Assembly (NCBI GenBank): GCA_026417895.1 | Contig: JAOACJ010000016.1 | Span: 20,015 to 84,014 of the forward strand | DNA length: 64,000 nucleotides | From: Patescibacteria group bacterium | GTDB lineage: Bacteria; Patescibacteriota; Patescibacteriia; UBA2591; CALHIP01 | Direction of reading: 5' to 3' | Notes under the pieces: generated by a model | The model's database searches: none | What the model saw: only the letters and a program-made list of their open reading frames with translations | What the model was told of the DNA's origin: nothing | Shown here: piece by piece, positions 1 to 56,693 of the stretch | How the letters are laid out: each line of letters begins with the position of its first letter | How positions within the stretch are numbered: position 1 is the stretch's first letter | Position numbers and translations under genes: made by a program

Positions 1-941
1 GCTTGATTTGCCTCAACTACCTTAATCGAAGTAGAAGCAGTAACCGTTTCATATGTTTTCTTAGAATAAATATAAACCTCAACCTTATACTCGCCAAGAA
101 AATAAAATGGATCGTTATTGTTTTTTGTTTTTATAAATTTTTCAGTACTAAGTTTAATACATCTCATACTGGTGGCGGTAGCGTCAGGCGGAGTAGGAGA
201 TCCTGACGATTCTTGAATAGGTTTACAATCAGCATTTTCATCTGTTGAAACTGTAAAATTAGAAGACCATGCTGTATTAGGTAAAGGAGGGGTAATTTTA
301 ACCCACTGGTTACCGTCAACGTTGGGATCAGCATCTCCTAATACCCAACTTATTTCCTCTAAATGCACCCCTGCTTTTGGCACAATCTCCACAATTAAAG
401 AACCTTGACTATCATGACCTTGAATAAATATGTTTTGTTCTGAACCCCTCCCACCGAATACTTTCACGTTAACACCAAAACCTTTCATCTCGCTTCTGAT
501 AATCGTTGGTATTTTAAATGTACTCAAATTAACCAAGGCCGGATTAATTAAGTTTAGTAGAGAAATAGCTAAAAGGATTAAAACTAAACCAATTATGGCT
601 GACATCATCTGTTCGCGTGCTTTTTGAATGGCTGGAGGATTACCAGCCGCTAAAATCCATTGAATTCCAGAAATCATAATCATCACCACTGCCATAATGG
701 CAATGGCAATAACTGACCACTGATAAAAATTCCGAATATATTTGGCTAAAAGAGAAACCTTTTCCTCTTTTTCGCCTAAAGGATACTCTTTACCTGCCTT
801 AAACTCTGGTGGAATGCCAATTTGTGATCGAAATTTAACTGCTTGAGCAAGGACGGGTAAATTAGAAAATAGAAAATAGAAAGTAGAAAGTAGAAGAATA
901 ATCAGAAAAATGTTTTTTTTGTTTTGGAAAAAGTTTTTCAT
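1..941 (-). CDS. VirB2/TrbC-like T4SS pilin-family protein with long C-terminal extension; partial, runs off window edge
   Basis: Hand translation of the minus strand from ATG at 941..939 shows no stop down to position 1 (more than 310 aa). The ORF is absent from the ORF track, presumably because it is partial. N-terminal signal peptide ends ...NLPVLAQA. The two-helix core YQWSVIAIAIMAVVMIMISGIQWILAAGNPPAIQKAREQMMSAIIGLVLILLAISLL shares the W-[IM]-[TL]-[SA]-[AG]-G-N...K/R-A/G-K...G-L motif with the five paralogs at 55431-58063. It lies 9 nt downstream of the preceding operon gene. Confidence 0.55.
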   Translation of the reverse strand, partial: MKNFFQNKKNIFLIILLLSTFYFLFSNLPVLAQAVKFRSQIGIPPEFKAGKEYPLGEKEEKVSLLAKYIRNFYQWSVIAIAIMAVVMIMISGIQWILAAGNPPAIQKAREQMMSAIIGLVLILLAISLLNLINPALVNLSTFKIPTIIRSEMKGFGVNVKVFGGRGSEQNIFIQGHDSQGSLIVEIVPKAGVHLEEISWVLGDADPNVDGNQWVKITPPLPNTAWSSNFTVSTDENADCKPIQESSGSPTPPDATATSMRCIKLSTEKFIKTKNNNDPFYFLGEYKVEVYIYSKKTYETVTASTSIKVVEANQ

Positions 942-950
942 ATCTTGCGT

Positions 951-1499
951 CTATTCCGCCTCAAGACCAGGCAAACCTGCTCCCGCTTTAATATCTGCTT
1001 CAGTGCCTGGTCTAGGCGTTAATCTTGATTTTTCTCCAGCTATATCTTTAGCTGTTTTTTGTTGAGCAGCTGGTGGTTTCCAGCCACAAATAACTTCCAA
1101 ATCTTGACCTCCCTCATCATATTGTTTCTTAATTTCTTGAAAGGCGGATGGATCTTGCTCTTTCAATTGAGCAAGTTCAGGGCAAACTTCTTCGCCGCCG
1201 CCCGAAAGAATTATTAAGATAGCGACGCTGATTAAAATACCTAAGACAATCGGTCCCCAAATAGGAAAGGTTTTAATCAAAACTGCCCCGACAGCTTTAC
1301 CAACGACTAAAAAAACCTTTTTCGCCGCCGTGACAGCGGCTTTTTTCACTGCTTTTTTAGCTGGCTCAACAACAGCCTTTTTCAAGGCTTCTTTGGCTTT
1401 TTCTTCAGCTAACTCTCTTGCCAAATCTTTTTCCTCTTCTTGTTCTTCTTGTTGTTCTTCTCCGCTAGGCATAAAAATAATTGAAAAATTAAATCTCAA
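951..1499 (-). CDS. hypothetical single-pass membrane protein, Lys/Ala/Glu-rich; T4SS-cluster member
   Basis: 182-aa ORF in the operon. Acidic and then basic low-complexity N-terminal region, one hydrophobic helix (FPIWGPIVLGILISVAILIIL), C-terminal soluble tail. The true start is possibly the internal Met of MPSGEE. Confidence 0.4.
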   Translation of the reverse strand: MRFNFSIIFMPSGEEQQEEQEEEKDLARELAEEKAKEALKKAVVEPAKKAVKKAAVTAAKKVFLVVGKAVGAVLIKTFPIWGPIVLGILISVAILIILSGGGEEVCPELAQLKEQDPSAFQEIKKQYDEGGQDLEVICGWKPPAAQQKTAKDIAGEKSRLTPRPGTEADIKAGAGLPGLEAE

Positions 1500-1591
1500 A
1501 GGGCAAAAAGAGAATGTTGGGCGTAAGGTTAAATTTAATTTTGAATTTTGGATTAGATTTTGAGGTCTTCATTTTGGATTTTAAATTTTAG

Positions 1592-2161
1592 CTACTGCCA
1601 AACAACTCTGTCGACTTTCCACTCTTCTCCTTCTTTAATTATTTTTAATTCTAGGGTCTGATAAAAGACCCTGGCTGGCTGGTTGTCTTTGACTTCTTCT
1701 CTCTGTGTCGAAATGAGATATTCGGCTTGATTTTCAGAAAAACTTTTTTCCTCAACATTTAAAACTTTTGTTGTAATTCCATAAAACTCTTTAATTGTTT
1801 CTCTCTCTTTCTGACGAATGTAATTTTCTGTTTCTTGCCAGAGACGCACTGACATTTCATTTTTTAAATCTTTTAAGTTTTGGAAATTGACATCGGTAGA
1901 AAAAGAACCATATCTTTCAACAAAATTCCGCGCCTTCAATTTTAGTTCATTTTTCAATAAAGTTAATTTTTCCTCTTCGGTTAATTCTCTGGACGGTGTA
2001 ATTTCTTGATTAAGTATTAATTCTTGATTCGTGACAGGAGGCGCTTGATTAAAAGCTGGTTGTTGAATGTTTGTCGCTGGACTTTGACGCTGACTCGAAA
2101 GAAAAAACAAGATTCCACCCAGAGCAATCAAGATAACGATAATGATAATAACTTTCTTCAT
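1592..2161 (-). CDS. hypothetical N-terminally anchored protein; possible VirB8-like bitopic component
   Basis: 189 aa. N-terminal TM (VIIIIVILIALGGILFFL) followed by a roughly 150-aa soluble domain. Its position immediately downstream of VirB4 matches the bitopic VirB8/TcpC-like architecture. No diagnostic motif was seen. Confidence 0.35.
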   Translation of the reverse strand: MKKVIIIIVILIALGGILFFLSSQRQSPATNIQQPAFNQAPPVTNQELILNQEITPSRELTEEEKLTLLKNELKLKARNFVERYGSFSTDVNFQNLKDLKNEMSVRLWQETENYIRQKERETIKEFYGITTKVLNVEEKSFSENQAEYLISTQREEVKDNQPARVFYQTLELKIIKEGEEWKVDRVVWQ

Positions 2162-2335
2162 AATATTTTAAAGATTTCAGGTTTAAGATTAAACTGAAAA
2201 TTTTGTATTTACTCAAGAAATATTTTTTAATTTTGCTTCTGTTAAATACTTTTTGGCATGAGCTATTTTAAAATGATATACCTTTTCTCTAATTTCCCTT
2301 TGTACCCTTTTAATCTGCAACCTTCAATCTTTAAC

Positions 2336-4249
2336 TTAAGGCTCTGTCTCTAAACCTTCCGCATATTCTCTTTTTGCTTGCTCAATTTCTAAAAGTTGAC
2401 GTGGGTCAGAAGTAATAAGCTGGTCTTCAGTATAAGAAGCAACAACCTGCATAGCCGCATGTCTAGCCCCGGCAAAGAAAATTCCCTCACCCACTCCACA
2501 TTCTAAAAGTAAATATTTTTCTCCCTCTGTTAACATAAAAGTTTTTGCAACAATATCAATAGCCGCCGGTGTTTGTTTGAAAAGAATTCTTAAGGCTGAA
2601 TTGGTGACAATGGCTCGGCCGTAGTCAGAAACAAGAAAATCATTAACATCTTGCGTAATAGTCGTCACTCCTAGATAATATTTTCGACATCTTTTGACTA
2701 AAGAAAAGATAAAGCGGGCCGAATCTTCATGTTGCATTAACCACCAAGCCTCATCAATAACCAAAATCCTTTTTTTTAGTTCTGAGCGGACAACGTTCCA
2801 AATATAATTAACAATGGTATAAATAGCCATTGGCCTTAATTCGTCTTCCAAATCACGAACAGAGAAAACGACCAATTGATTATCAAGCTCAACATTGGTT
2901 TGATGATTCAAAAGGCCAGCAAAGGTGCCCTCGGTATATTTTTTTAATCGTTGTGCTAGATTTTCGCCACCAGCCATTCCTTCCAAAATCTCTTGAAGGT
3001 CAGAAAGGGTTGGCATTTCCACTTTATTTAAATCGCAGCCCGGAACAATATCTTTTTTGGCATAAGTCTCTAATAAAGCCCGGTCAAGTAAAGAATCTTC
3101 CTCAGGGGTGAAAATTTTTTGTCCCTTCTCTCCGGGTACGCCGATCATAATTTTCAATAAACCTTTTAAAACAACAACGGCCGAGCGAATAATATCAGCG
3201 ACTTTTAACTCTACACCTCTTTTTGGTCGAGGTAAATCAAAGGGATTAATTTTGCTCTCTGAAGCCAAGGAAACATCAATGTAGGTACCACCTACCGCTT
3301 CAGATAGATGTTTATATTCTCTTTCCGGATCAATAATAATAACATCAATACCCATCATCATTGAACGCAAAACCTCTAATTTAACACAATAACTTTTCCC
3401 TGCCCCTGAAGTGGCAAAAATGACTGAATTATAATTTTCTAAGGAAAAACGATCAAAAAGAATTAAACTATTATTATGACGATTAATGCCGTAAAGAATA
3501 CCACGATCAGAGGTAACATCAGCGGAAATAAAAGGAAAAGAAGAGGCACAGGGCGAAGAGTGCATATTAAAAGCAATCATTAACTCGTCATTACCTAATG
3601 GGAGGGTCGAGTTGAATCCTTGTTCGGCTTGGTAAAAAACTCTTTTACTATAAACCAGTTTTGAACCGAAAATGCCCTCGATTTTTTCCGTTAGTAAATC
3701 CAAGTCCTTTAAAGAATCGGCATAAAGAGTGACGTATAAAGCAAATTGAAAGAAATGTTCCACTCCTTGAGTTAAATCGTCTCGCAATTTCTCAATATCC
3801 CTTAGAGCTGTTTCTTTAATCGGATCGCGCGGTAAGCCTTTTTCTCTTTCCATTTCAATTTCAGCATAGAGAATGCCGACTCTTTTTTGTAATTGTTTTA
3901 AAATAATCGAGGCGTGTACCGGGTAAAAAAACATAGCAATATCCATCGGCGCGTTAAAATTGATAATTGGAGCAAACCAACCAATGGCAATATATCGGGG
4001 ATAGGCAGTGACAAAAAGGGTGCGAACATATTTGTTACCTAAAATCAAATGATCAGGGGTCACTTGCATAGCCGCCGGAGCGATTAAATCGCGAACAGAA
4101 ACTAGGCCCTCCTGTAAAGCCCTTTCCATTTCAATCATTTCCTTGTCCTTCATTTCTTCTTCCGTTTCTTTTCTTTTTTTCTCTTCCGGCGAAAGTCTTT
4201 CTTTTTTTAGTATTTCTGCTTTTTCAATTTTCGATGGCTCAAAGATCAT
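2336..4249 (-). CDS. virB4: VirB4/TrbE/TraC-family conjugal-transfer ATPase, central plus C-terminal ATPase part
   Basis: 637 aa. Walker A FATSGAGKSY, Walker B ILVIDEAWWLM, and the conserved N-proximal block NKYVRTLFVTAYPRYIAIGWF that is typical of VirB4 mid-region. Confidence 0.85.
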   Translation of the reverse strand: MIFEPSKIEKAEILKKERLSPEEKKRKETEEEMKDKEMIEMERALQEGLVSVRDLIAPAAMQVTPDHLILGNKYVRTLFVTAYPRYIAIGWFAPIINFNAPMDIAMFFYPVHASIILKQLQKRVGILYAEIEMEREKGLPRDPIKETALRDIEKLRDDLTQGVEHFFQFALYVTLYADSLKDLDLLTEKIEGIFGSKLVYSKRVFYQAEQGFNSTLPLGNDELMIAFNMHSSPCASSFPFISADVTSDRGILYGINRHNNSLILFDRFSLENYNSVIFATSGAGKSYCVKLEVLRSMMMGIDVIIIDPEREYKHLSEAVGGTYIDVSLASESKINPFDLPRPKRGVELKVADIIRSAVVVLKGLLKIMIGVPGEKGQKIFTPEEDSLLDRALLETYAKKDIVPGCDLNKVEMPTLSDLQEILEGMAGGENLAQRLKKYTEGTFAGLLNHQTNVELDNQLVVFSVRDLEDELRPMAIYTIVNYIWNVVRSELKKRILVIDEAWWLMQHEDSARFIFSLVKRCRKYYLGVTTITQDVNDFLVSDYGRAIVTNSALRILFKQTPAAIDIVAKTFMLTEGEKYLLLECGVGEGIFFAGARHAAMQVVASYTEDQLITSDPRQLLEIEQAKREYAEGLETEP

Positions 4250-4254
4250 AAATT

Positions 4255-4932
4255 TTATAGCTCAACTTTTAATTCTTCAATTTTACTCATTTTTTGATTA
4301 ATTGACTCGGTTGGATTATAGATATTATAAAACAATTCAATTAAACTTTGTGTGTCTAAAGGCACGGCATTAATACCCATGCTCGAAAGACCGGAAATAA
4401 CAAAATCAACCTTTTTAAAAAGCTCAGCTCGATATCTCTCAAATTTCTCTCTTTTCATTCTAATCAAAGAGGGCATTCTAAAAACATCCATCAAACGATC
4501 AGTAAATTTTCTTGATTTGTCGCCGGCCGGATTATAAGCAACGACGATAAAAAATTTCCTCGTCATAATGTCGCCCAACTGAACCAGCTCTTGGACATAA
4601 CTAATGTAATCTCTCATTTGGATTTTTAGTAATTCATTGGTTTGTTCCTTTTCTCTTTGTTTTAATTCTTCAAGATATGGTGCGATATTTAGTTTTCTTG
4701 ATTGAACAACAATTTGAATTGGCCAATCCAAAGAATTTAGAAAATTAACATAAGCAGAAATAACGGCTTTTTGCTCCTCTTCGGATTTAAGAGCAAAATT
4801 AACCGAGGAACAAAGTAAGACCGCTCTTAAAGTACCGTCTCGTAAAATAACGCAATCGTTTCTAATGCCAGAAATATCTAAATATTTCTGAGTTGAAACA
4901 GTGATTTTTTGTCTGGCTATTTTAGATCTCAT
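4255..4932 (-). CDS. VirB4 N-terminal-domain-like protein (separate ORF immediately upstream of the virB4 ATPase ORF)
   Basis: 225 aa. The pattern ITVSTQKYLDISGIRNDCVILRDGTLRAVLLCSSVNFALKSEEEQKAVISAYVNFLNSLDWPIQIVVQSRKLNI resembles the VirB4 N-terminal region (..tkdG.l.avl.v.g.d..l.s.ee......nfl..l...iqi..). Its stop TAA lies 5 nt before the ATG of the next ORF, in a different frame. Confidence 0.5.
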   Translation of the reverse strand: MRSKIARQKITVSTQKYLDISGIRNDCVILRDGTLRAVLLCSSVNFALKSEEEQKAVISAYVNFLNSLDWPIQIVVQSRKLNIAPYLEELKQREKEQTNELLKIQMRDYISYVQELVQLGDIMTRKFFIVVAYNPAGDKSRKFTDRLMDVFRMPSLIRMKREKFERYRAELFKKVDFVISGLSSMGINAVPLDTQSLIELFYNIYNPTESINQKMSKIEELKVEL

Positions 4933-5068
4933 AGATCTTTAATACAAAAATTAAATCTCAAAAGTCAAAATGTAATTTAAAATGTAAAATTATTTTTTTG
5001 ATTAATTTTGAACTTTTGGTTGTCATTTTATATTTTAAGGTTGGATTTGAAATTTTCAAAATATAAAT

Positions 5069-5500
5069 TTACTCTTCCCTGGCTAAGCCACCGGTATCAA
5101 CTAAAATTGATAGATCAGAAAGCCGACCCCGCGGTAAAGTTTTCTTAATTTCTGGCGGCGCTTCTTCTTTTTCTTTTTTAAGAACGATTTCTTTTTCGGG
5201 AATGATCTCTTTTCTCCAAACCCGAACTTTTGGCCTTTGAAAAAATTGTATAAGATTTAATAAAAAATAGTGAAAGGGGCGACCATTAATTTTGACAAAA
5301 GTAAAAGAACCAAAAAATGGACAAATAACAAAAAGAAAAACAACGACAAAAATCCAAAAATCTAAGAGCTTAAAACAAAGAAAGGTTATACCTCCAGCAA
5401 AAATCAAAAGAATAAACTGACGTGGCGTGATCGGTCCAATAATTTTTGGCTCAATATCAATAAATTGTGGAACAACAAACTGCATATTCGCTTTGCTCAA
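5069..5500 (-). CDS. PrgI/VirB3-like small membrane protein
   Basis: 143 aa. The motif GPITPRQFILLIFAGGITFLCF followed by a second TM helix fits the PrgI-family two-helix proteins (gpLTlrQ motif) that precede VirB4 in Gram-positive T4SS. Confidence 0.5.
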   Translation of the reverse strand: MSKANMQFVVPQFIDIEPKIIGPITPRQFILLIFAGGITFLCFKLLDFWIFVVVFLFVICPFFGSFTFVKINGRPFHYFLLNLIQFFQRPKVRVWRKEIIPEKEIVLKKEKEEAPPEIKKTLPRGRLSDLSILVDTGGLAREE

Positions 5501-5626
5501 ATTAAAGGTTAAAAATGAAAAACTAAAAACGACAACTAAAAAGTGAAAATTATCCTTTACCCTTACGATAAACTCTTCTTTTAAGTTCAGTTTTAAATTT
5601 TTTCTTGTCGTTTTTCATTTTTAGTT

Positions 5627-6865: not shown

Positions 6866-6928
6866 GGAAAGTTTTTTAATTTTTTCTTAATTTTAAAAAT
6901 TACAAAAGCAAAAAATTATAAATTCTGG

Positions 6929-8371
6929 CTAAAATCTCAATTTCCTATTTAATTCGGCAATCCTTTCAAAATCTGCTAAACTCATTGTCTCTCTCCCTTG
7001 AGCAAGTCTTTCTTCAATCACTTCTTCTACTGACTTTTTCTTTGATAAGGCTTCTTCGCCAATTTCTAAATATAAATGATAAAGGGGGCTTTTTTGCCAT
7101 GCCTGAATTGCTTCGGCTTTTTTGGTTAAAGATTCTTCGGCTAATAAATTAATTTTATTAAGAATAATCTGGCAAGTCTGCTGACCGCCCCATCTTTTTA
7201 AATCCATTAAAGTCATTTCTTTTATCTCTTCAACTGGTCCTAAGGCTTTCGGATAACTGCTTACGTCTTCTACTATCTTTTCTTCGCTCAGCGGTCGCTT
7301 AATTTGAATAGGCACTTCTTCGACGGTTTCAGTTAAAGGCATTTCTTCAAACTTTTCTTTTTTTATTTCTGACTCCTCTCTTGTGGCAACAGGTTGGATT
7401 GGTGTTTCTAATTCTGGAAAACTCGGGACAATCGTGCCGCCATTAAATTTCTGTTTCAATTTTTCGTCAATTTTTGTTTCTTGATCTGGCTCTGGCGTGT
7501 CCATTAATTTAGCAATAGATGGAGGAATCAGTTCTTTCACTTTCTCACTTTCTGGTTTTGGTTCTTCAAGAGGTATTTCTTCAACGATTGACCCCTTAAT
7601 AATTTCTGCTGGCGTTAGAAATCCTTCTGCCAGACCTGGCTTCTTTTCCATAGTTTGAGCAAGAGAAGTTGCTTCTCTTGGCCCATAAAATTTAACTTTA
7701 AACTCTTTTAGTAGGTTCATTATTTCCTTGGCTTTTTCTGGAACTAAACCTAAGCCACCAATTTTTTCTGGCCGAGTTAAAATTTCTTCGGTCTCAAAAT
7801 CTTTTCTTATTTCTTTTAAAAAATTAAGACAAATATTGGTAAATCTTTTCTCTAAAATTTCCTCCATAAAACTCAAGCCGGTTTTTTCTTTGACTTCTTT
7901 AATTATCTCGTCGGGGTTTAACCCATAGCCCTTAATCTCTAGTTCCGGCTTTGGCACTGTTTTGACCTCTTCAACCGCCTTGGCCAATTCTAGCTCATCT
8001 TTGCCAATTTCCATTTCCTCTTCTCTTTCTGGTTGCTTTTCACTTTTTACTTCTGATTCTTTAGTTAGATAGTCTATTACTTCATTGAAAATTTTTTCCG
8101 CTAAATCTTTTTTTAATTCAGCTGCTTTTTCCGGGCTTAGACCAAAATTTTCTTGACAAAATTTTTCACTCTCTGACCAGGCAATATCTTTAATCATCAA
8201 TCTCACAACCAACTTGGCTAATGGCAAATTGTATTTTTTCTCAATTTCCTCTAATAATTTAACCTTTTCTTCAGAAGAAACCGCTTCTTGAAGTTCGTAA
8301 GGTAATTTTTTAAATTGTTCTAAATAATTATCCATTTTAAAACTGACCCAATTATTCCAGTCAACATCCAA
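6929..8371 (-). CDS. hypothetical acidic (Glu/Lys-rich) protein, no TM
   Basis: 480-aa ORF with uniform codon usage inside the operon. No recognisable motif. Confidence 0.5.
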   Translation of the reverse strand: MDVDWNNWVSFKMDNYLEQFKKLPYELQEAVSSEEKVKLLEEIEKKYNLPLAKLVVRLMIKDIAWSESEKFCQENFGLSPEKAAELKKDLAEKIFNEVIDYLTKESEVKSEKQPEREEEMEIGKDELELAKAVEEVKTVPKPELEIKGYGLNPDEIIKEVKEKTGLSFMEEILEKRFTNICLNFLKEIRKDFETEEILTRPEKIGGLGLVPEKAKEIMNLLKEFKVKFYGPREATSLAQTMEKKPGLAEGFLTPAEIIKGSIVEEIPLEEPKPESEKVKELIPPSIAKLMDTPEPDQETKIDEKLKQKFNGGTIVPSFPELETPIQPVATREESEIKKEKFEEMPLTETVEEVPIQIKRPLSEEKIVEDVSSYPKALGPVEEIKEMTLMDLKRWGGQQTCQIILNKINLLAEESLTKKAEAIQAWQKSPLYHLYLEIGEEALSKKKSVEEVIEERLAQGRETMSLADFERIAELNRKLRF

Positions 8372-8416
8372 TTATTAAATCCCAAAACTCAGGCATTGGT
8401 CATTGAAGGTTAAATT

Positions 8417-9340
8417 TTAAAGATTATTTGAAGTTTGTGATTTGGTGTTTGGATTCTGAGAAAATGTTTCACTTTTTTCCTCTTCAAGGTATTTTTTTTC
8501 GAGAGGGTTCGGTTTCATTGAACGTTCTTCGGGCCCTGTTCGATCTTCTTGTTCTGTCTCTTCATTTTTTTCAATTAAAGTGGGCTTGCTCCAAGGCGGA
8601 ACTTCTTCAATGGGCGGCAAAGAGACAATGGTCTCGCCTTGCGAAATAACAAATATTGTCTTTTCTGGCCAATAAACGATAAGGTCTTGAGAATAGGCAC
8701 TAGGAAAAAGAGAGCAGGTGTTAACATAATCATAAATTTTAATCAATTCTTCAATTTTCTCTTTTTCTTGAGGGGAAAGTGAATTGATGTTTGGACTATT
8801 AGTTAAATACTCTGTTCTAGCTAAAGCTCGGTCCGGTTTTTTTTCCAATCTTGTCTCGTAATCAATAAGCCAATTTTTAATAGTCGGGGGGAATGTTCCT
8901 CCTTTTTCTAAAACAATTGGCCGCTTAGTGATAACATTTTCATTTTCTTTCAAAGCCTTGCTTATCTCCATTCTTAAAAGTTCATGTTCGATAAAAGGAA
9001 GTTGGCTAAATTTATAACGAATCAGATCAAATGGTCGAAGGGAATCAAAGGGGAAATTAAGTAGAACCTTAAAATGTTCTTTAATCAGTCTTACTATTTC
9101 TTCTCTATTCAAAAAACCAATAGCGATAAATTCGAGTTGAGGAATAATTTCCTTATAAACTTCTCTTAAAGAAGGATCTTCAGCTGTCTTTTCTTTAATT
9201 TTTTGAGAAAGTAAAAAGGCATCCCTTGAATTGAAACGTCTGATCATTTCGTTAATCTCTTTTTTTAATTCTTCAATAAAAGAAGGGGTTTTCAATTGGA
9301 GAGAGGAAATTGTTGTTAAATCTAACATAGAAATAGACAA
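8417..9340 (-). CDS. hypothetical protein
   Basis: 307-aa ORF in the operon, soluble, no motif recognised. Confidence 0.5.
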   Translation of the reverse strand: MSISMLDLTTISSLQLKTPSFIEELKKEINEMIRRFNSRDAFLLSQKIKEKTAEDPSLREVYKEIIPQLEFIAIGFLNREEIVRLIKEHFKVLLNFPFDSLRPFDLIRYKFSQLPFIEHELLRMEISKALKENENVITKRPIVLEKGGTFPPTIKNWLIDYETRLEKKPDRALARTEYLTNSPNINSLSPQEKEKIEELIKIYDYVNTCSLFPSAYSQDLIVYWPEKTIFVISQGETIVSLPPIEEVPPWSKPTLIEKNEETEQEDRTGPEERSMKPNPLEKKYLEEEKSETFSQNPNTKSQTSNNL

Positions 9341-9361
9341 AATTTAATATTACACTCATCT

Positions 9362-12703: not shown

Positions 12704-12740
12704 TTGTTTTTTATCTATTTTTTTATCTTTTATCTATGTT

Positions 12741-15700: not shown

Positions 15701-18700
15701 GTTCAGTCAAAACTTCTGGTGTCTCTGTCGAAACTAAGGTACATTGAGCACCGCTACCTTCACCAGTTTGTTTTTGACATCTTAAGAAATAGTCACAAAT
15801 TTCTAAAAATCGTTGTTGATTCTCCTGCCAAACATATCTTTTTCCTGCACAATAAAGCCATTCACCGCAAACACGATCGCGACGGACTTTAAGAATTAAA
15901 TTAGTGTCATTAGTATTTTGGCCTAAAGCATAACAGTAACGGCAATAATCGGTATTGGCAAAATTAGAATTTGTACAATTATCATCAGAATTAACAGGAT
16001 TTCCTTGTCCATCTACTGGCCAAGGTTTTTTCGTACAATCAATTGGCGAAACAAGTCGGTGCTGATTAGCCTCACTTTTAGCATAAGTGGCAATAGAATT
16101 ATAAATGGCACTTGGATCATTTTGGGCTTTAAATAAAACACAGCCTTCTTTTAAAGAAACCTGGCCACGACAAGAAGCTTTATCTAATTGATTGTTGTCT
16201 AAATAGTAATAAGGATCTAAAGGTTTAAATTCAATATCATCAAAATAAACTTCGCCAAAAGCCTCACAACATCTCCAAGGACAATTGGGACAATTTTGGA
16301 TGGTGGTACAATCGCCAGCGTTTGTCTTAGAACAGCCACCATGCCAATAAGCCGGAGCTAGAAGGGGAATAATTTTAATTTCTTCAATGGCTAAATTTTT
16401 CGGATTTAAAGGACCTCCCGCCACGACTCTTAAAGACCTTTTTTGCCAACTAGTAATGGTCGTTGAAGCATCAATGCTAGCCCCGATTTCATAACCATGT
16501 TCATAATTCCAAGGCCAATGGTTTAGATTGTCACCCCAGGGGTTTCCGCCATTTTTAATCAAAAAAGCAATACATTCTTTAAGATTGCCACGGTTAAATT
16601 TACATTTGGGCTGACCGGAAATATTACATTGATTATTACTCCAATTTCCGCCAACCCAACTACAGCACGATTGAGAAGAACCACAATGATTTTTATATTC
16701 TTGCCAATCTTGACACTCTTCGGTTTGACAACCATTTAATTGAGTTACACCTCGCCAGCCTTCGTATTTTAAATTCACATGCCCAGATGGATAAGAAAGG
16801 TGAGAGGTAGAAACAACCTTGACTTTAAAATTCAAAACAAAACTTTTTTGATTTTTATGAGGTATTTCAACAATCTGAGAGGCGGCGTATATTTTTCGCG
16901 TGTCTGCACCCACAGTATGTGGCGTATCGTTAGCTATTTTAAGTGATTTACTGGCGCCGTCCCAACTCACAGTAGATGAATTGCCGCTGTAGCCGTAAGA
17001 CCAATTTGGGGCTGGCCCCTGACCACTACTTCCACTACCAATTTCAAAATCACCATTCTGGACATAATTAGTCACGCCGGCCGTTCTTAGTGGTTCAATA
17101 TATTCTGTACAACCAGCAAATCTTTCTTCACATTCACCAACCAAGCCTTGATAGCCGCTTTCCTCGGAAAATTTAATGCCATAAGTCACCCCATCCGGTA
17201 AATAATTCGTATAGCAAGGCTGATCAGTGCCTTTCTTAAACCAGCCGGTTCTGTATTCACTGCCAATCGGCACTTTTTCTCGCCAAACACAAATTTTTTC
17301 ACCAGGATCTTTGAAATAAACTTTGCCCGCCGCGGCTTGTTCAAACTCTTCACAGTTTTGCTGATGATAACGACAGAGAATTGGTCGACGGGTATATAAA
17401 TCAGGGTTATTTTTTAAATAAAAATCTGTCCAGGAAATTGGCTCACCTTGAGAAAGGTTGGGTAAACCAAATTTCTGACAACCTTTATCGCCAGCCGGAC
17501 AGGCTTTGGTCTGATCAACAACTAAATAGGTTAATTGATCAGCTGGGACTAAAACATTATCTTTTGGCTCGTCGGGATCAGTCAAGTTAAATGTTTCTGA
17601 AAATGGTGAGGTGGAGTTTTTTGTCTCAATTAAAGCTTCGCAGCCAATTTTGATTTCCGGACAGAGTTTAGAAAATGATCTAAAGAAATGAGATTGATTG
17701 GCTCGGTCTCTGTATTCAGCACAACCTAAATGATAGCCAGGCGCAGAAGCGCCAGTTAAATCCTGATCACAAACAGTTGGTGTTTGCCAAGAATTTTTAA
17801 TAGCAAAGATATTTTGTCGGACTTCTTTTAAGGTGATGTTGTCGAGATAGAAGGGAGAAGAAGATAATATTACTAATCTTTCATCATTAGCAACCTCTCG
17901 CTGGAAATAAACTGGTCCGACAGTGAATGAATACCACTCACCAGTAGTCAAAGCAGGCAGAGAAGGGAAGTCTATGTTATTGTCATTGCCTCTAAATCGT
18001 ATGGTAAGAGTGGTGGAATTATTACTGGCTCTTTTTACCCAGAAGGAAAGTAAATACGACCTTCCTTTTTGGACTAAATCCTGAACTGGCCTAGAGACAG
18101 AATTATTATTGTTGGCAACTCTCATTGACCGACCGCCAAAATAGATTGATTCCGAAGAAAGTTCACCGTCGATCCAGGGTTCAACGGTTAAACTTTCAAA
18201 ATCATCTTCAAAAAGAATTCTTAGATTATTAGCCGCATTGCCTTGATACTCACGACAACCAACATTTACCGAAGAACATCTTTCTCCTTCTGCTGGAATA
18301 GCCATATAGGTACAGATTCCATTATTAAATTCAACTCCGTTTAAAGCAAGACCACCTTGAGTGCTCGTCGGGCAATAACCGCTGATCACGGTTGTCGTCT
18401 TTCTTAGGGGCACACAAGTCTCGGAACAGGTAATAGTATTTTTATAGAGTTTATAAGAAACATGGCCATTAGCATCATAAAATTCTTTACAATGAGGATT
18501 GGTCCGAGCATCTTGAGAATTTTGACACCTGCCCCAAAGGGCTTGAGCATTGTTAGAAGACAACATTTCGTCTGGCTCAAAACCATTAGTTGTTGTCTTG
18601 GCTAAAAGATAATATCTTTTTAATTGATAACCTGTCGTCTCTGAACCAATCCAGGTATAGAAGTATTGACACTCAGCTCTTGGTTTTTGACAGGGTCTGA

Positions 18701-21700
18701 GATAAGAATAGTATTCTCTTCCTTCACCACCGCGATTGACGACATCTAAATTTGTAAATTCTTCACAACCAACTTCGGAGGCCGGACAGATTCGAACCGT
18801 CCGTGGAATAAAATAAGCATCTTCTTCACTATAAAAATGCGTTGGTTTTTGTTTAAAGACTTCATAGCCAACACACTCTCTTGGACAACGATCAGTATCT
18901 CTCGCCACGGCTGGCAGATAGGGCCCACCTAAAACTGGTGTATATTTTTCACAACCAACTTCATCTTGTTGACAAGCTAAAGCATAATCAGCACAGGCAT
19001 GATCATCGTCATTGGTAATTAAATTTCCATTGTTATCGCGGTTGTAACATTTCATCCAATCTGGCGCCTTTTTTAAATAAATTTTATTCGTGCTGGCATA
19101 AGATTTATAAGATGAGAGTGAGCCAACTTCTAATTGTAAATCATCAAGATAAATGCCTGTTCCATTAACAGCAATTTCTAAATCAATAATTTTTTTATTA
19201 TTTGGAGCGATAAAATCTGTTGAAACCCTTTGCCAAGGTGTATTTTTAGAAATAGGAATAATTTTTGTAACGCTATTGTTAATCTTGACTTGAATTTCTC
19301 GATCATTACTTTGATCTTTATTTTTCACCCAGAAAGAAAGGGTATATTTTGTCCCTGGTAAAAGAGAAATATCAACGTTGTCAGTGGAAGCCAACTCTAC
19401 TTTACCGCTACCAGTAAATTTAGCCGAAACTTTACCGGATTTAGCTTCGGCTTCATCAACAAGAAATTGACCACTGGTTATTTGCCAACCCTTCACTAAA
19501 ATAGTCGGGGTCGTAGTCGTACTTGTTTCAGAATAATCTTCAAAGCTCGAATTGGGTAATAAATTGGTGCCTAAATTTTCTTTGGTCCGGATAAATTCGG
19601 AACAACCCTCAGAAGTAGCCGGGCAGGTTTCAACAAATTTATTAAAGAAGATGGTGTTAAAGGGATCAGACACAGAACGGGGACTACCAACTGATCCGTT
19701 TGGCTGGATATTTAAAGATTGGTTCGGTTCAGTACAAATCCAACCACCTGCCCCTTCGGCAAAGTCTTTATTCCATCTCTGACAATACCACTGACAACCA
19801 ACCGAGTTCGCATCGCAGTCACCAAAATCTAAAGTATTTTTTAACCAGGCAAATCTTTGATTATCTTTAGTTCGGGTATAAAGTTGACAAGTATTATAAT
19901 AAGCCGGACATTGAGTGCCGGCCAAGCGCCAAATATTTTTTTCGCGGGTACAATAGCCGTAAGTATGACAGGTGCCATCTTCATTTTCGCCAACACAATC
20001 CTTCATCTCTATACAAGTCTCTTGGCGTTCATTAGAAGCAGGCAAGGGAATAGCCGAATAAGCCATTAAATTACATTGCATTGAGGGTAATTTCAAAACC
20101 CAATTCGGATCAACTAAATGACAGAAAGGTGAAGCCGAAACAAGACATTGTCCATCTTTTTTACAACAGTTAGCACTTGAGTCCCAACTACCTATACTTC
20201 CTTCACATTTTTTTTCTGTCGTATTTGACTTCGGGTCCCCTTGGACATAAATTGTACAATCGCCATCAGAACTAACTTTGTCAAAACCTTCAACAATTTG
20301 AGCCAAAGTAAACTTGGCATCGCCAAAATCACCCCGGCTAATTTTCTCAGCAGCAATTTCTAAGCCTAAAGGAATAACTCGTGCCCGACGAAGTTTTTTT
20401 AGGTTGGTTAAAGAATAACGAGAGGAAAAATCACGCGCCCCATCAGTCAGACCATAACTACCGACATACCAGTTACCATGTAAATAATTTTTCTCAATTG
20501 CTTCTTTAATAGTTAAATTTTCTTCAATAGCCCGGGCAAAACCGCCGTCAATGACGCAATTATAAGGCAAAGCATATTTTGTTTCCGTTGGACAAGCTGC
20601 AAATTCCTCTAAAAGATTTATCTCACCAGATGGTTTTTTAAAGCTTACAGTTTTTAAATCAGCATAAATGGCCTCAATTTTTTCTTGGGTAGGAGAAGCC
20701 GGAATCCCACCCTCCCAACTTGTTCGACCACTTGGACTAGCTTCAGGATTAAGACCTTCTTTTTGAAATAACCTTTCAAGAAATTTAGAAAAAAATGTCT
20801 GAATAAATGTATTTGCCACATCAGCAACCAAAACACCAGTGTAAACTTTAAGTGACGCTTTCCCTTCAGCAATCATCTGTCGAGCTCTTTCTTCGGTTAA
20901 ACCAGCTGGTAAAAGCGCTTTACCAGAAATTTTAGAGGTAACTGACTGAAATTGGCCCTGAAGAGATTGGAAAAATTTATCCGCACCAACTTTTTCAGCC
21001 GCCTTACTTAAAATACCTGATTTGAGACTCATGGCCACGCCAAGATCACTTCCTTCCGGCGTGAAGGTTTTTTGAATATCTTCTAAAATGTTCAAGTCTG
21101 GTGAGGGAGTTCCTTTTTCCACTGCTTCTCTTGCCTCATCAACCATTTTTTCTAAAGTGGTTGCCCATTCAGAGAGTTGAGAGGCATAATTTTGTGCCCT
21201 TTTAATTGCTTCAAAACAATAGCTATAATTATTTTGACATTGAGTAGCATTATTAATACCTGGACAAGCACCGTTATAGCAATTAGGGTTTTGACAAAAT
21301 TCTTCTTGTGATTTATTAAGACAACGAACCGGTGCCTCAATTGGTCTGTATCCATCACTGGTCCATTTTCTTCCCAACCACCAGTTGAGACTTGTCTGAA
21401 AAGTTGGTGGTCCTTGAGTAATGGCTTTCAACCTTTCTTTTATAGTGGAGAGACTATTAAGTACACCGGAAATATTCGGCGGACCTATCTTTTTTGATTC
21501 TTGTAGATACTTATCCCACTCAGTTAAAAAGAGCTGCTGATGTCCAGAAAGTTGATCCGCAATATTGATTAAATTACTTTTGTTAACATCGTAAAGTTTC
21601 GTATCAATCCTAATCGCATTTTTAATCTTAACCTGAACTTGGGGCGGCTGACCTGGAACATATTCGACATTCACATAACCTTTCAATCCTTCTTTATACT

Positions 21701-22256
21701 GAGCAATGAGTTTTTCTTTCGCCTCTCTTATCCTTTCTTTCATCTTCGAAATAGGGCAACGTGCCTCATATTCAAAAGGAATTTTTGGCGGCTTTACAAA
21801 TAAGAGAATATTCAGTTTTATTGTCGGATCAATCGGATCACAAAGGCTTTGGAGACCAAAACCTTTAGTCGCCACTTCATCTAAAAGATCACCGACAACA
21901 GAATCAGCCATTTTGTTCCAGTATTCTTTGTCGGTAAAAAACATTGGTTTGCCAGCTTTACCGCCAGTGGCCAGCCAAGTAGCTGATTCGGTGACAAATT
22001 TTTGGGCAAAACCTTCAAGAAAGCTTTTATAAAGAATGGCTATTACCTGATATTTTACCTTGTCATAAATCCTAATAGCTTGACTTTTTATCCATTCTAA
22101 AACCCGGGGAATATCACCGACGGTTGTGGAAGCTCCTTGAGCATATGCTGGTTTCGGCCAAAATAAAAGAGGAGTAAGTAGGGAGAAAATCATTACTCCG
22201 AGTAAAAAACTGATGATAATTTTTCGAAGATGTTTTTTCATTTTCCCTTTTTTCAA
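12741..22256 (-). CDS. giant secreted cysteine-rich surface protein with three CBM_4_9-like carbohydrate-binding modules
   Basis: 3171-aa uninterrupted ORF. N-terminal signal peptide (…LLTPLLFWPKPAYAQG), very many Cys in CxxC / CC / C-x-n-C arrangements, no TM after the signal. Three modules carry the CBM_4_9 signature (N..FE…W…G..Y.LSFWVK…YLDD): around LLPGTKYTLSFWVKNKDQ…IYLDDLQLEV, QKGRSYLLSFWVKRASNN…FYLDNITLKEV and NGDFEIGSG…VYFDDIEFKP. Confidence 0.8.
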   Translation of the reverse strand: MKKGKMKKHLRKIIISFLLGVMIFSLLTPLLFWPKPAYAQGASTTVGDIPRVLEWIKSQAIRIYDKVKYQVIAILYKSFLEGFAQKFVTESATWLATGGKAGKPMFFTDKEYWNKMADSVVGDLLDEVATKGFGLQSLCDPIDPTIKLNILLFVKPPKIPFEYEARCPISKMKERIREAKEKLIAQYKEGLKGYVNVEYVPGQPPQVQVKIKNAIRIDTKLYDVNKSNLINIADQLSGHQQLFLTEWDKYLQESKKIGPPNISGVLNSLSTIKERLKAITQGPPTFQTSLNWWLGRKWTSDGYRPIEAPVRCLNKSQEEFCQNPNCYNGACPGINNATQCQNNYSYCFEAIKRAQNYASQLSEWATTLEKMVDEAREAVEKGTPSPDLNILEDIQKTFTPEGSDLGVAMSLKSGILSKAAEKVGADKFFQSLQGQFQSVTSKISGKALLPAGLTEERARQMIAEGKASLKVYTGVLVADVANTFIQTFFSKFLERLFQKEGLNPEASPSGRTSWEGGIPASPTQEKIEAIYADLKTVSFKKPSGEINLLEEFAACPTETKYALPYNCVIDGGFARAIEENLTIKEAIEKNYLHGNWYVGSYGLTDGARDFSSRYSLTNLKKLRRARVIPLGLEIAAEKISRGDFGDAKFTLAQIVEGFDKVSSDGDCTIYVQGDPKSNTTEKKCEGSIGSWDSSANCCKKDGQCLVSASPFCHLVDPNWVLKLPSMQCNLMAYSAIPLPASNERQETCIEMKDCVGENEDGTCHTYGYCTREKNIWRLAGTQCPAYYNTCQLYTRTKDNQRFAWLKNTLDFGDCDANSVGCQWYCQRWNKDFAEGAGGWICTEPNQSLNIQPNGSVGSPRSVSDPFNTIFFNKFVETCPATSEGCSEFIRTKENLGTNLLPNSSFEDYSETSTTTTPTILVKGWQITSGQFLVDEAEAKSGKVSAKFTGSGKVELASTDNVDISLLPGTKYTLSFWVKNKDQSNDREIQVKINNSVTKIIPISKNTPWQRVSTDFIAPNNKKIIDLEIAVNGTGIYLDDLQLEVGSLSSYKSYASTNKIYLKKAPDWMKCYNRDNNGNLITNDDDHACADYALACQQDEVGCEKYTPVLGGPYLPAVARDTDRCPRECVGYEVFKQKPTHFYSEEDAYFIPRTVRICPASEVGCEEFTNLDVVNRGGEGREYYSYLRPCQKPRAECQYFYTWIGSETTGYQLKRYYLLAKTTTNGFEPDEMLSSNNAQALWGRCQNSQDARTNPHCKEFYDANGHVSYKLYKNTITCSETCVPLRKTTTVISGYCPTSTQGGLALNGVEFNNGICTYMAIPAEGERCSSVNVGCREYQGNAANNLRILFEDDFESLTVEPWIDGELSSESIYFGGRSMRVANNNNSVSRPVQDLVQKGRSYLLSFWVKRASNNSTTLTIRFRGNDNNIDFPSLPALTTGEWYSFTVGPVYFQREVANDERLVILSSSPFYLDNITLKEVRQNIFAIKNSWQTPTVCDQDLTGASAPGYHLGCAEYRDRANQSHFFRSFSKLCPEIKIGCEALIETKNSTSPFSETFNLTDPDEPKDNVLVPADQLTYLVVDQTKACPAGDKGCQKFGLPNLSQGEPISWTDFYLKNNPDLYTRRPILCRYHQQNCEEFEQAAAGKVYFKDPGEKICVWREKVPIGSEYRTGWFKKGTDQPCYTNYLPDGVTYGIKFSEESGYQGLVGECEERFAGCTEYIEPLRTAGVTNYVQNGDFEIGSGSSGQGPAPNWSYGYSGNSSTVSWDGASKSLKIANDTPHTVGADTRKIYAASQIVEIPHKNQKSFVLNFKVKVVSTSHLSYPSGHVNLKYEGWRGVTQLNGCQTEECQDWQEYKNHCGSSQSCCSWVGGNWSNNQCNISGQPKCKFNRGNLKECIAFLIKNGGNPWGDNLNHWPWNYEHGYEIGASIDASTTITSWQKRSLRVVAGGPLNPKNLAIEEIKIIPLLAPAYWHGGCSKTNAGDCTTIQNCPNCPWRCCEAFGEVYFDDIEFKPLDPYYYLDNNQLDKASCRGQVSLKEGCVLFKAQNDPSAIYNSIATYAKSEANQHRLVSPIDCTKKPWPVDGQGNPVNSDDNCTNSNFANTDYCRYCYALGQNTNDTNLILKVRRDRVCGEWLYCAGKRYVWQENQQRFLEICDYFLRCQKQTGEGSGAQCTLVSTETPEVLTEQKYKNRDFGWTGMDYSGYSLYNFYPVEMLRPKNYPNGYALSYLSGTTDYGVGNRTCTRNEDCPKGQVCYQSKCVVSPTCKLYPENTSPFSREVEGTYRGLNLCTERGGNNCLCSYRKAESVLGEPTYYFNLETDVESIKVCTQAENPQDLGKCCSPPCPNGMAVAFREDCTRTDEGRKNNQGKCEPMKKITDYIGLAGYCLEPDLEKPKEIQACLTWFPGEVETGLDSYNQVRSAGYFPSSDRRWYGYERYTRPAEISGFAPTFFPLGFNLTSSFPGQRLGGNWGCFADRLIQPLYLGGDYGNKCSEYTNYGETDLGYCFLAEGGEGTILQAKYIPYLERKIKREEIQKIIVKAKFRWENTTCSDLNTVDCSSSNKCCGPFDLELGPNNFKRAAYLHATHQNSSGYVCKSNGTCPVGGACLADECPDKNKSCLFIQAEFDQENYLRNFHLEFNEDGSGWGGAIIYTINLHLKSGANLPIKAYLAPASEINVAEGASCWRKDSNNNSRGCCQDYLGFSSEELKRDGSVTRQWACDGTDKEMASCFRGDQRKGSPSQAIYLYSSSYFAKSGNNFYYLDRKIYEYMIDRIEIDWKIDKSNPGDCKFGADYQGTIILPYEDPATKEKKYEKEVTGKGNGEARLFVQTIFDQKEGELKGFKVEFNDDDAGHGAAALTGIRIILKEAANKLVKINDKPYLPTVVNTNLVKLKPGTDVPYGNLTDILDYSYECLPRGATGFQGTMPKKYIIDSKGEVCHLYSGGIYDSDAVIKKLFPKSYAWSYLDVNTLSYLPGNIANNWDSRSDTSLHPTDRSPQIQSVNFSTGVPAGGTVGKITIGNQESGNILISGKTYTATLRFYAWADGAYMPVREVVVDWGDGFRSGSSNMITKNRKPVCKKGTDGLPLSFGDDPDACLNQYWEFVHTYLCTNPNGCSYQPKVYVKDNWGWCAHSASTPTTPYAGDFSCLDPDGNPGTSTPANFGVPYDGQIILNP

Positions 22257-22262
22257 TTTTAC

Positions 22263-23021
22263 TTATTTTTGTGCTTCTTTTACGGCTTGTAAAAACAGGT
22301 TTTTTAAGGTGGCATCATCAATTTGATCGAGAGTAGTTTTGTCCGCTCCGACCGAAAGCATCAACTGCCGAATAGTCGCTGGATCCAAATTTTCAAAACC
22401 AGTTAAATTTTCAGCAAAGGGTTGGTTAGTGGGAGGTGTATTAGTTATTGATAAATTGATCAATTTTTGCTGTTCAGCGATAATTTTAGAAAAATCTAAT
22501 TTGCCTAATCCGCTTGATAATTGTTTTTTTAACTCCTCAGGATCAATGCCTGTCTCTTGGATAGTTTCATTATACAACTTTTTTAGAGTTTCGTCATCAA
22601 CCTTGTCTAGGGTTTCTTTAGGTAGACCAGCTTGAATTAATATCTCTTTAATTTCCTCAACTGTTAGTTCTTTCTTTTCTTCTATTTTGGACCCCTCGGC
22701 AACTTTTTTCAAGGGGGTTGATTTGGGATTTAGAGGGTCAGAACCAGCCTCAATTTCTTCTTTGTCGGGATAATTATCAGAATCTGAATCGGATAGGTAA
22801 ATTGAGGTTTTATATTTAAAAACCTCATCAACATCAGAAAGACCATCTTTATCCGTGTCCCTCTGGGCTAATAAAGACTGAATTTCTTCATTAGTTAATT
22901 TATTTTCGTATTTTGGCACTCGAAACGGTCCTTGAATTGACTCTTTAATTCTAAAAAAGCCAAAAAAAAGGGTAAAAATAGCTAAAAGAGCTAAGCCAAT
23001 TAAAGGACCATGATTTTTCAT
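22263..23021 (-). CDS. membrane-anchored protein with Ca-binding-like Asp-rich loops and an internal duplicated helical motif
   Basis: 252 aa. N-terminal TM LIGLALLAIFTLFFGFF. DTDKDGLSDVDE and DSDSDNYPDKEE resemble thrombospondin-type-3 / dockerin-like calcium loops. There are two copies of ..AG..K.TLD..DD.TLK.L... The start overlaps the ksgA stop by 2 nt. Confidence 0.5.
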   Translation of the reverse strand: MKNHGPLIGLALLAIFTLFFGFFRIKESIQGPFRVPKYENKLTNEEIQSLLAQRDTDKDGLSDVDEVFKYKTSIYLSDSDSDNYPDKEEIEAGSDPLNPKSTPLKKVAEGSKIEEKKELTVEEIKEILIQAGLPKETLDKVDDETLKKLYNETIQETGIDPEELKKQLSSGLGKLDFSKIIAEQQKLINLSITNTPPTNQPFAENLTGFENLDPATIRQLMLSVGADKTTLDQIDDATLKNLFLQAVKEAQK

Positions 23022-30857: not shown

Positions 30858-31223
30858 CTATACATTATTTGAGGTGTTATTTCTTTCTAAAAGTTTTGCC
30901 CTTTTTAGCAATTTCTCTAATCTTTCTTTCATTGACCAAAAATCAAGGTTTTTGATTTCTGGTTTGGTTAAAATTATAATATCAAAACCTTTTTTTATTT
31001 TATTTAAATCTTGATAAATAATTTCACGCAACCTCCTTTTAATTTTATTCCTAACAGTTGATCTTTTGTCAATTTTATTGGCCACCACTAGGCCAAAACG
31101 AGAAAATTTAAAATTGTTTTTCAAATATTTTAATCCTAATTCTTTAGTAAAAAAAGGTTGACCTTGTTTAGCTAAAATTTTAAAATCCTTTTCTTTGACC
31201 AGTCGATATTTTTTTGGCAACAT
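30858..31223 (-). CDS. rnpA: ribonuclease P protein component
   Basis: LPKKYRLVKEKDF…RFGLVVANKIDKRSTVRNKIKRRLREI; 121 aa, basic, immediately downstream of rpmH. Confidence 0.8.
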   Translation of the reverse strand: MLPKKYRLVKEKDFKILAKQGQPFFTKELGLKYLKNNFKFSRFGLVVANKIDKRSTVRNKIKRRLREIIYQDLNKIKKGFDIIILTKPEIKNLDFWSMKERLEKLLKRAKLLERNNTSNNV

Positions 31224-56297: not shown

Positions 56298-56301
56298 ATA
56301 T

Positions 56302-56658: not shown

Positions 56659-56693
56659 AAACTTTTTAAAATAGACTGTGGATAAATCTTTCT

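Follow-up and report, generated by a model that had tools for sequence, protein, structure and literature searches.

A 64,000-nucleotide (nt) stretch from the genome of a Patescibacteria group bacterium (assembly GCA_026417895.1, contig JAOACJ010000016.1, positions 20,015 to 84,014 of the forward strand; hereafter, the window) carries a cluster of type IV secretion system (T4SS) genes at its left end. This cluster is very probably a chromosomal, vertically inherited T4SS typical of Patescibacteria, which derives from monoderm machinery of mating-pair-formation class FATA (MPF-FATA) and has no adjacent relaxase or type IV coupling protein (T4CP). We assign it to this known type because its composition, the missing relaxase and T4CP, and its origin-proximal site with ksgA, rnpA and dnaN fit the descriptions by Wang 2023 (PMC10633639) and Quiñonero-Coronel 2025 (PMC12102498). 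Such systems were already described in 2023-2025, and the locus adds no new kind of system. A preliminary description of the window had held that T4SS-like clusters of this composition were noted in a few lineages of the candidate phyla radiation and were functionally uncharacterised. The first statement understates the literature: the survey of 2,474 virB4 genes describes them across most Patescibacteria classes, with TrsD, PrgI, VirB6 and VirB2 arrays as components, and in Southlakia epibionticum the T4SS genes and pilins, with the coupling protein and relaxase missing, are essential for epibiotic growth (PMC10633639), as a 2025 review also states (PMC12857230).

Components of the secretion machinery

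As laid out in the preliminary description, thirteen consecutive minus-strand genes run from ksgA to the window edge at position 1 (Table 1), twelve of them within the interval 1-23021 and ksgA as the thirteenth. The protein sizes it had listed (182, 189, 307, 480, 1113 and 3171 amino acids (aa)) and the Walker A and Walker B strings of its VirB4 were all present in the map of open reading frames (ORFs). For the gaps between the genes it gave 2-174 nt; the upper bound stood, but the smallest gap counted is 1 nt. The window proteins were compared by BLASTP with the ORFs of 80 related loci, whose VirB4 proteins are 67-78% identical to the one analysed here and which were taken, with flanks of 10 kb, from a collection holding one genome per species. 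In addition, a Pfam scan covered all window ORFs of at least 90 aa, and bore out the proposed VirB4 ATPase, PrgI/VirB3-like protein and VirB2-type pilin at the window edge.

The 637-aa VirB4 contains the Walker A string FATSGAGKSY and the Walker B string VIDEAWW. Its closest solved structure is PDB 4AG5, the C-terminal domain of the monoderm-type VirB4 of Thermoanaerobacter (E = 1e-40), whereas TrwK was matched at only 7.6e-4. Its homologues number more than 8000; the best 120 have 69-91% identity and lengths of 612-671 aa, and their names, where the sources give any, are those of Patescibacteria or Parcubacteria.

Two parts were absent from the preliminary account and were identified here by Pfam and synteny: a 225-aa TrsD-like ORF and an array of five pilin genes, described below. 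From the weak Pfam match and its position, we assign the 225-aa ORF as the TrsD-like partner of VirB4. The gene lies 5 nt upstream of virB4 in another reading frame and adjoins virB4 in 78 of the 80 related loci; the homologue in locus L081 carries the TraC-like family PF26593, and the protein had no match among PDB sequences. TrsD is the commonest VirB4-associated component in Patescibacteria (PMC12102498). The idea that a stop codon or a sequencing error had divided one VirB4 into the 225- and 637-aa ORFs was rejected, given the different frames, the 5-nt spacer, the separation kept in 78/80 loci and the size of about 630 aa that is the norm for VirB4.

The prediction that a VirB8-like subunit would be found among the unknown ORFs proved correct. 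The 189-aa protein, 100% identical to NCBI N2259_02935, has no significant Pfam family, but it has the bitopic topology of VirB8 and a C-terminal NTF2-like fold that is closest to VirB8 structures. The fold comparison scored highest for Rickettsia VirB8-like (13.3), Agrobacterium VirB8 (13.3), Bartonella VirB8 (13.2) and IcmL-like (13.0) structures, followed by TraE (12.8), R64 TraM (12.7), TrwG (12.5), CagV (11.5), PrgL (11.1), TrwG in the R388 complex (10.9), TcpC (10.7), and TraH, pIP501 TraM and OrfG (each about 10.4), versus 10.7 or less for generic NTF2 proteins. A profile of the family collected 2043 representatives at 50% identity (1745 at E<=1e-10), nearly all of 180-230 aa. With homologues in 77 of the 80 related loci, the VirB8-like subunit is near-universal beside virB4 and far more widespread than the approximately 50 profile matches reported in PMC12102498. 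It is not new in kind in this position, since Table S3 of that survey calls VirB8 beside virB4 in some genomes and S. epibionticum has SEML1_0012.

The VirB6/TrbL assignment of the 1113-aa protein stood for the N-terminal domain and not for the protein as a whole. The full-length sequence gave no TrbL match in Pfam, but the N-terminal 345 aa alone matched TrbL/VirB6 (PF04610) with E = 9.3e-4, below the Pfam threshold, and the same family was matched by 14 of 36 homologues, at best with 5.2e-7. Approximately six to seven hydrophobic segments lie within aa 7-321, and conservation across 45 loci is limited to aa 1-340. Family-level matches of this kind give weaker support, and suggest that the protein is an extended VirB6-like subunit.

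Between the VirB6-like and PrgI genes lie the genes for the 307- and 480-aa proteins, neither of which had a significant Pfam match or a known fold for its helical domains. The 480-aa protein is 100% identical to NCBI N2259_02960, for which the NCBI start gives 468 aa (6929-8335). The 307-aa homologue is detectable by BLAST in 21-23 loci, where it lies between the VirB6-like gene and the 480-aa homologue. In L062 (1569-3467), the two homologues are fused into a single 633-aa ORF, and L044 (6370-7410) combines the N-terminal domain from the 480-aa family with the core from the 307-aa family. Both families therefore appear modular, and the fusion and the recombined domains suggest that their proteins act together, perhaps as a cytoplasmic platform.

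The 182-aa membrane protein had neither a Pfam match nor a phmmer match in the related loci. Relatives with a downstream pilin encode a protein of 132-350 aa with the same architecture in the same slot, so that the position is conserved and the sequence is not; the likeness is one of position and architecture.

Table 1. Features of the T4SS cluster and other window genes discussed here, with the number of related loci (of 80) holding a homologue
Feature	Position	Strand	Loci (of 80)	Characteristics
Long-form VirB2-like T4SS pilin	1-941	-		PF18895 T4SS_pilin E = 4.5e-11; C-terminus cut by window edge
Small membrane protein, 182 aa	951-1499	-		acidic/charged N-terminus, hydrophobic hairpin aa 62-107
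VirB8-like subunit, 189 aa	1592-2161	-	77	N-terminal membrane helix, disordered linker, NTF2-like domain aa 60-189
VirB4 ATPase, 637 aa	2336-4249	-	80	P-loop_TraG 4.5e-26, AAA_10 1.4e-13, DUF87
TrsD-like protein, 225 aa	4255-4932	-	78	weak TraC_F_IV match E = 5.5e-5, sub-threshold
PrgI/VirB3-like membrane protein, 143 aa	5069-5500	-	76	PF12666 PrgI E = 1.2e-8
S-adenosyl-L-homocysteine hydrolase (AhcY), 412 aa	5627-6865	-	9	AdoHcyase E = 6.8e-61, AdoHcyase_NAD 5.3e-54
Conserved 480-aa protein	6929-8371	-	72	no membrane segments; three small all-helical domains, disordered linkers between
Conserved 307-aa protein	8417-9340	-	21	modular partner of 480-aa protein; no transmembrane segment
Extended VirB6-like protein (putative), 1113 aa	9362-12703	-	45 (limited by 10-kb flank)	polytopic N-terminal domain of ~340 aa, variable hydrophilic C-terminal region of ~770 aa
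Giant secreted/surface protein, 3171 aa	12741-22256	-		CBM_4_9 2.8e-13; 4.0% Cys; signal peptide or N-terminal anchor
252-aa protein	22263-23021	-		transmembrane segment 4-26; TSP3_bac E = 3.8e-5 (sub-threshold), TSP3-type calcium-binding repeat
KsgA	23023-23841	-		Pfam; housekeeping neighbour, not machine part
186-aa protein	23907-24467	-		PaaX central Cas2-like domain E = 3.3e-20
LysM + CHAP cell-wall hydrolase	27167-28357	+		LysM 5.7e-20, CHAP 1.2e-14
ComM/YifB-like AAA+ protein	28359-29891	-
rnpA	30858-31223
RecA	36159-37163	-
dnaN	40683-41813
Five VirB2-like pilin genes (array)	55431-58063	+		288 aa (PG_binding_1), then 118, 121, 131 and 160 aa; T4SS_pilin in order 2.2e-10, 7.2e-12, 1.2e-9, 2.7e-8, 2.4e-3 (last weak)

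Chromosomal setting and gene order among relatives

The preliminary description had proposed a synteny comparison, and the gene order proved to be kept across the 80 related loci: (giant ORF), VirB6-like, 307-aa, 480-aa, PrgI, TrsD, VirB4, 189-aa, (small transmembrane (TM) protein or ComF), pilin. After the 189-aa gene, relatives encode either ComF, which follows the VirB8-like gene in 33 loci, or a small protein whose N-terminus is charged and whose TM segments are C-terminal. Further downstream come one or two pilins, a protein with a TM segment and a PD40 β-propeller, a DsbA-like protein, RadA and RecG. The 67-78% identity of VirB4 across these loci indicates a core function under purifying selection, and not a mobile element. 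Many of the loci are labelled Falkowbacteria, Uhrbacteria or Parcubacteria. The contigs of many metagenome-assembled genomes among the relatives (L002, L004-L012 and others) are titled 'uncultured Gammaproteobacteria bacterium' despite their patescibacterial VirB4 and gene order; these titles are probably placeholders or erroneous labels of a bulk submission.

No VirD4/T4CP, relaxase, VirB11 or secretin family was detected in Pfam among the ORFs of the 64-kb window, in agreement with the preliminary description, and no T4CP, relaxase or VirB11 was present within 10 kb downstream of virB4 in the related loci. Nor did any window ORF match the VirB7, VirB9 or VirB10 families, and no PrgB-like family was detected in the window. 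Since the edge pilin gene runs off the window, the downstream flanks of the relatives are the best proxy for the sequence beyond position 1. It is highly improbable that the cluster belongs to an ordinary conjugative element (an integrative and conjugative element or an integrated plasmid) with its T4CP, relaxase and oriT beyond the window. The nearest structure of VirB4, 4AG5, is of the monoderm conjugative type, the window stops inside the pilin gene with the 3' flank outside the view, and a minority of Patescibacteria do carry relaxases (PMC12102498). However, the same gene order is found in the core chromosome in all 80 loci, and the 10 kb downstream in relatives holds the pilins, PD40 propeller, DsbA-like, RadA and RecG genes. 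Moreover, neither an integrase nor a tRNA gene flanks the cluster (the only tRNA of the window is at 35937), its GC content (0.32-0.40) is within the range of the whole window (0.28-0.40), and housekeeping genes are interleaved with it.

The surroundings are those of a chromosome near its origin. The same-strand run continues upstream of ksgA as far as LeuRS (27088), and the minus strand carries 30 of the 32 genes to the left of about 45.9 kb, whereas between 45.9 and 58 kb all genes are plus-strand. The minimum of the cumulative GC skew, near 46 kb, coincides with this strand switch (about 45.8-46.0 kb), and dnaN, gyrA, yidC and rnpA lie near it; ksgA within the run, rnpA and dnaN are origin-proximal markers. 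The interval at about 45.8-46.0 kb is thus the probable replication origin, although the window yielded no dnaA gene and its 14 DnaA boxes (15 expected) were neither enriched nor clustered. The remainder of the window is housekeeping, with genes for LeuRS, the LysM-CHAP hydrolase, the ComM/YifB-like protein, LspA, DksA, RnpA, PNPase, RecA, RNase Y, ClpP, RbfA, DnaN, FtsH, S1, GyrA, YidC, ClpB and others. Between ksgA and leuS, the 186-aa protein has a PaaX central Cas2-like domain, and its homologues are encoded near the T4SS in L052 and L060.

In the preliminary description, the thirteen genes formed a single operon. Such an arrangement, in which AhcY, KsgA, the 252-aa protein and the giant protein would be co-regulated with the machine in one unit, is in our view unlikely. 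Every gap is 174 nt or less, some are 1-6 nt, and the terminator-like sites of the window, found at about twice the expected number, include none inside a minus-strand intergenic gap. However, co-orientation reflects the replichore bias seen in the strand switch and the GC skew, holding for 30 of the 32 genes between the window edge and the putative origin, and is therefore no evidence for an operon. AhcY is absent or displaced in relatives, and the giant gene is absent from L081. In addition, four gaps of 92-174 nt are roomy enough for promoters, though the 36 promoter-like sites found in a scan of the window are no more than chance (36.0 expected); one of these matches lies in the PrgI-TrsD gap (5059-5032), and another (1614-1585) overlaps both the 3' end of the 189-aa gene and the gap that separates it from the 182-aa gene.

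The run of thirteen contains two housekeeping genes, ahcY and ksgA. AhcY was found in the flanks of only nine related loci; three of these also show the 307-aa homologue, and in all three AhcY is placed between that homologue and the 480-aa one, whereas here it lies between the 480-aa protein and PrgI, and it is missing from the compact cluster of L081, a closer relative. Because its position varies or the gene is absent among relatives, we regard AhcY as a housekeeping passenger.

Several points weigh against reading the cluster as a relaxase- and T4CP-free T4SS of this composition. The absence of a T4CP covers the window and the flanks of the relatives, and VirD4 homologues lie far from virB4 in many Patescibacteria (PMC12102498), so that a distant T4CP is possible. 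The TrsD call combines a sub-threshold Pfam match with position, and an hhalign comparison of the TrsD family with the N-terminal 30-250 aa of the window's own VirB4 gave no similarity (probability 0.1%). For the 1113-aa protein itself, the VirB6 match is below the Pfam threshold, and a profile of the VirB6-like N-terminal domain found no match among PDB sequences. The giant protein and the LysM-CHAP hydrolase are tied to the system by position only. Finally, the transport direction and the cargo proposed below are predictions.

Surface genes and the likely role at the host interface

The edge pilin begins with a signal peptide, its two-helix pilin domain spans aa 65-132, and at least 180 aa follow as a C-terminal extension, with hydrophobic segments of the protein at 10-32, 71-101 and 108-140; homologous pilins lie downstream of virB4 in 25 related loci. 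With the five-gene array, the PF18895 pilin genes in the window number six. Three of the array pilins are of canonical size (118-131 aa), and the 118-aa one also matches TrbC (3.1e-9). The array lies 32 kb from the main cluster, across the strand and GC-skew switch at the putative origin. In relatives, the second downstream pilin is fused to VanY/M15 or Peptidase_M23 (L001:8637-9920, L081:13718-15073), and the gene for the protein with TM segment and PD40 β-propeller (about 425 aa) lies between the two downstream pilins. The long pilins of L001 are Cys-rich, and a DsbA-like gene is among the downstream genes in, for example, L006, L009 and L011.

The 3171-aa giant protein had no match among PDB sequences. 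Its C-terminal 270 aa are conserved in up to six loci. Just upstream of the VirB6-like gene, a long co-directional ORF runs off the locus edge in 24 of the 40 loci with enough flank, and most of these ORFs have 2-5% Cys. The giant protein is probably a frequent but optional neighbour of the system, acting as an adhesin or host-contact protein. Whether the 252-aa protein belongs to the T4SS is uncertain; no homologue was seen in the related loci, whose flanks seldom extend that far. Only one other gene in the left 46 kb shares the plus strand with the LysM-CHAP gene, whose product is tentatively a candidate VirB1 analogue, that is, a wall-opening enzyme. Monoderm VirB1 analogues carry CHAP domains (PMC12102498), and hydrolases flank virB4 in S. 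epibionticum (PMC10633639).

From these parts, a host-interface conduit for epibiotic growth, and not conjugation, is the most likely job of the machine. VirB4, TrsD and PrgI would power it, and the VirB6-like and VirB8-like proteins, with PrgI, would form the channel in the cytoplasmic membrane. The short pilins would polymerise into a tube or pilus across the wall to the host cell, and the long pilins fused to wall-binding or wall-hydrolase domains, together with the giant Cys-rich protein, could mediate passage through the wall and contact with the host. The 307- and 480-aa proteins would sit on the cytoplasmic face, possibly handling substrates in place of a T4CP. Both an uptake conduit and effector delivery have been hypothesised for patescibacterial T4SSs (PMC12857230; a 2024 perspective, PMC11665869), and a 2026 preprint reports tube-like structures, which may be T4SS pili, where a patescibacterium meets its host (bioRxiv 10.64898/2026.06.21.733656). 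Uptake of host macromolecules would be slightly favoured over effector export, and among the cargoes the ComF, RadA and RecG neighbours would favour nucleic acids.

The preliminary description had concluded that the machine does not transfer DNA. Conjugative export is indeed unlikely, but the machine may take up nucleic acids; ComF, RadA and RecG flank the relatives' clusters. A ComB-like machine that imports host or environmental DNA or RNA, either for processing by ComF, RadA, RecG, ComM and RecA or as a nucleotide source, is possible, though it is not the reading we would choose. Uptake was proposed in PMC12102498 and PMC11665869, and the survey pairs T4SSs with transformation and recombination genes in class ABY1. 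ComF follows the VirB8-like gene in the 33 loci mentioned above and occurs close to the S. epibionticum locus too, RadA and RecG are found on the cluster's flanks, ComM/YifB-like and RecA genes lie in the window, and the T4CP and relaxase are missing, as in Helicobacter pylori ComB. However, this is guilt by association only, and DNA-repair genes are also common origin-proximal housekeeping genes. In addition, ComB systems possess VirB7, VirB9 and VirB10, none of which is present here. In S. epibionticum, the T4SS is essential yet ComEC-dependent transformation is dispensable (PMC12857230, PMC11665869), indicating that the function is not classical transformation.

Export of proteins or effectors, or a contact-dependent injector directed against the host, with the giant Cys-rich protein or other proteins as substrates, appears rather unlikely. 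Wang 2023 suggests that the S. epibionticum system 'may instead export proteins' (PMC10633639), protein-secreting T4SSs without a T4CP exist (Ptl, Brucella VirB; PMC12102498), and the gene for a giant secreted protein is immediately upstream in the 24 loci noted above. On the other hand, an N-terminal signal or anchor of its own spares the giant protein the need of a T4SS for export, and neither effector-like genes, secretion signals nor a T4CP receptor were identified.

A more elaborate version of the host-interface conduit is speculative, and we consider it doubtful. It would have a modular non-ATPase platform of the 307- and 480-aa proteins replace the coupling ATPase of a pilus-tipped conduit importing host nucleic acids, with the giant Cys-rich protein and the long pilins fused to peptidase or peptidoglycan-binding domains in host recognition and wall penetration, and with ComF, RadA and RecG as receivers of the cargo.

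Few machines of Patescibacteria have been shown to be essential for their epibiotic lifestyle, and the T4SS is among them. For one large lineage, the locus and its relatives sharpen the parts list by a VirB8-like subunit, two helical proteins, a PD40 propeller, fused long pilins and a giant Cys-rich neighbour, all of which offer definite starting points for structural and genetic studies of host contact and exploitation.

Comparison with known systems

Like H. pylori ComB, the system is a T4SS without coupling protein or relaxase, non-conjugative, and linked with ComF-type competence proteins, but ComB is a diderm system with VirB7, VirB9 and VirB10 homologues, whereas the sequences here are monoderm-related. 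The same outer-membrane core of VirB7, VirB9 and VirB10, along with VirB11, distinguishes the diderm MPF-T (VirB/D4) systems, and has no match here.

The likeness to the monoderm MPF-FATA systems (pCF10 Prg/Pcf, pIP501 Tra, pGO1 Trs) is closer: PrgI, a 4AG5-like VirB4, TrsD as in pGO1, a VirB8-like bitopic NTF2 protein (PrgL, TraH, TraM) and a VirB6-like polytopic protein are shared, and both are without VirB7, VirB9 and VirB10. The system here differs from them in having no relaxase, T4CP or PrgB-type adhesin, in its chromosomal, origin-proximal site, as opposed to a mobile element, and in its six VirB2-like PF18895 pilin genes, which the Gram-positive systems are without.

S. epibionticum ML1 belongs to a different Patescibacteria class from the source lineage of the window. 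Its locus SEML1_0006-0019 (PMC10633639) likewise has VirB4, a TrsD-like protein, PrgI and six pilins, and both a coupling protein and a relaxase are missing. Beside PrgI, in a position equivalent to that of the helical proteins here, is a large helical protein (SEML1_0011); SEML1_0012 is NTF2-like and matches the pIP501 TraM/VirB8 type, and its VirB6 (SEML1_0013) is also longer than 1085 aa. A pilin array (SEML1_0014-0019), the proximity of dnaA/dnaN and a nearby ComF complete the correspondence. The arrangement differs: in S. epibionticum, VirB6 and the helical protein have the NTF2-like gene between them and virB4 is followed by two wall hydrolases, whereas here the VirB8-like gene comes after virB4, the pilin array stands apart at another locus and the gene for the 3171-aa protein precedes VirB6.

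The systems surveyed in PMC12102498 match the present one in VirB4, the adjacent TrsD, PrgI/VirB3, VirB6 and PF18895 pilins including an array. Relaxases and nearby T4CPs are rare among them, and they too lie near oriC, with dnaN, rnpA and ksgA; here also there is no relaxase or T4CP near virB4 and the site is origin-near, with the same three genes. The comF, radA and recG neighbours found in relatives here are of the kind that the survey gives for class ABY1. In the sections of it that we consulted, we found no discussion of the 307- and 480-aa proteins, the PD40 propeller or the giant Cys-rich neighbour. We see no essential difference between the surveyed systems and the one described here, beyond the frequency at which the VirB8-like subunit was found, in 77 of 80 loci here against approximately 50 homologues there.

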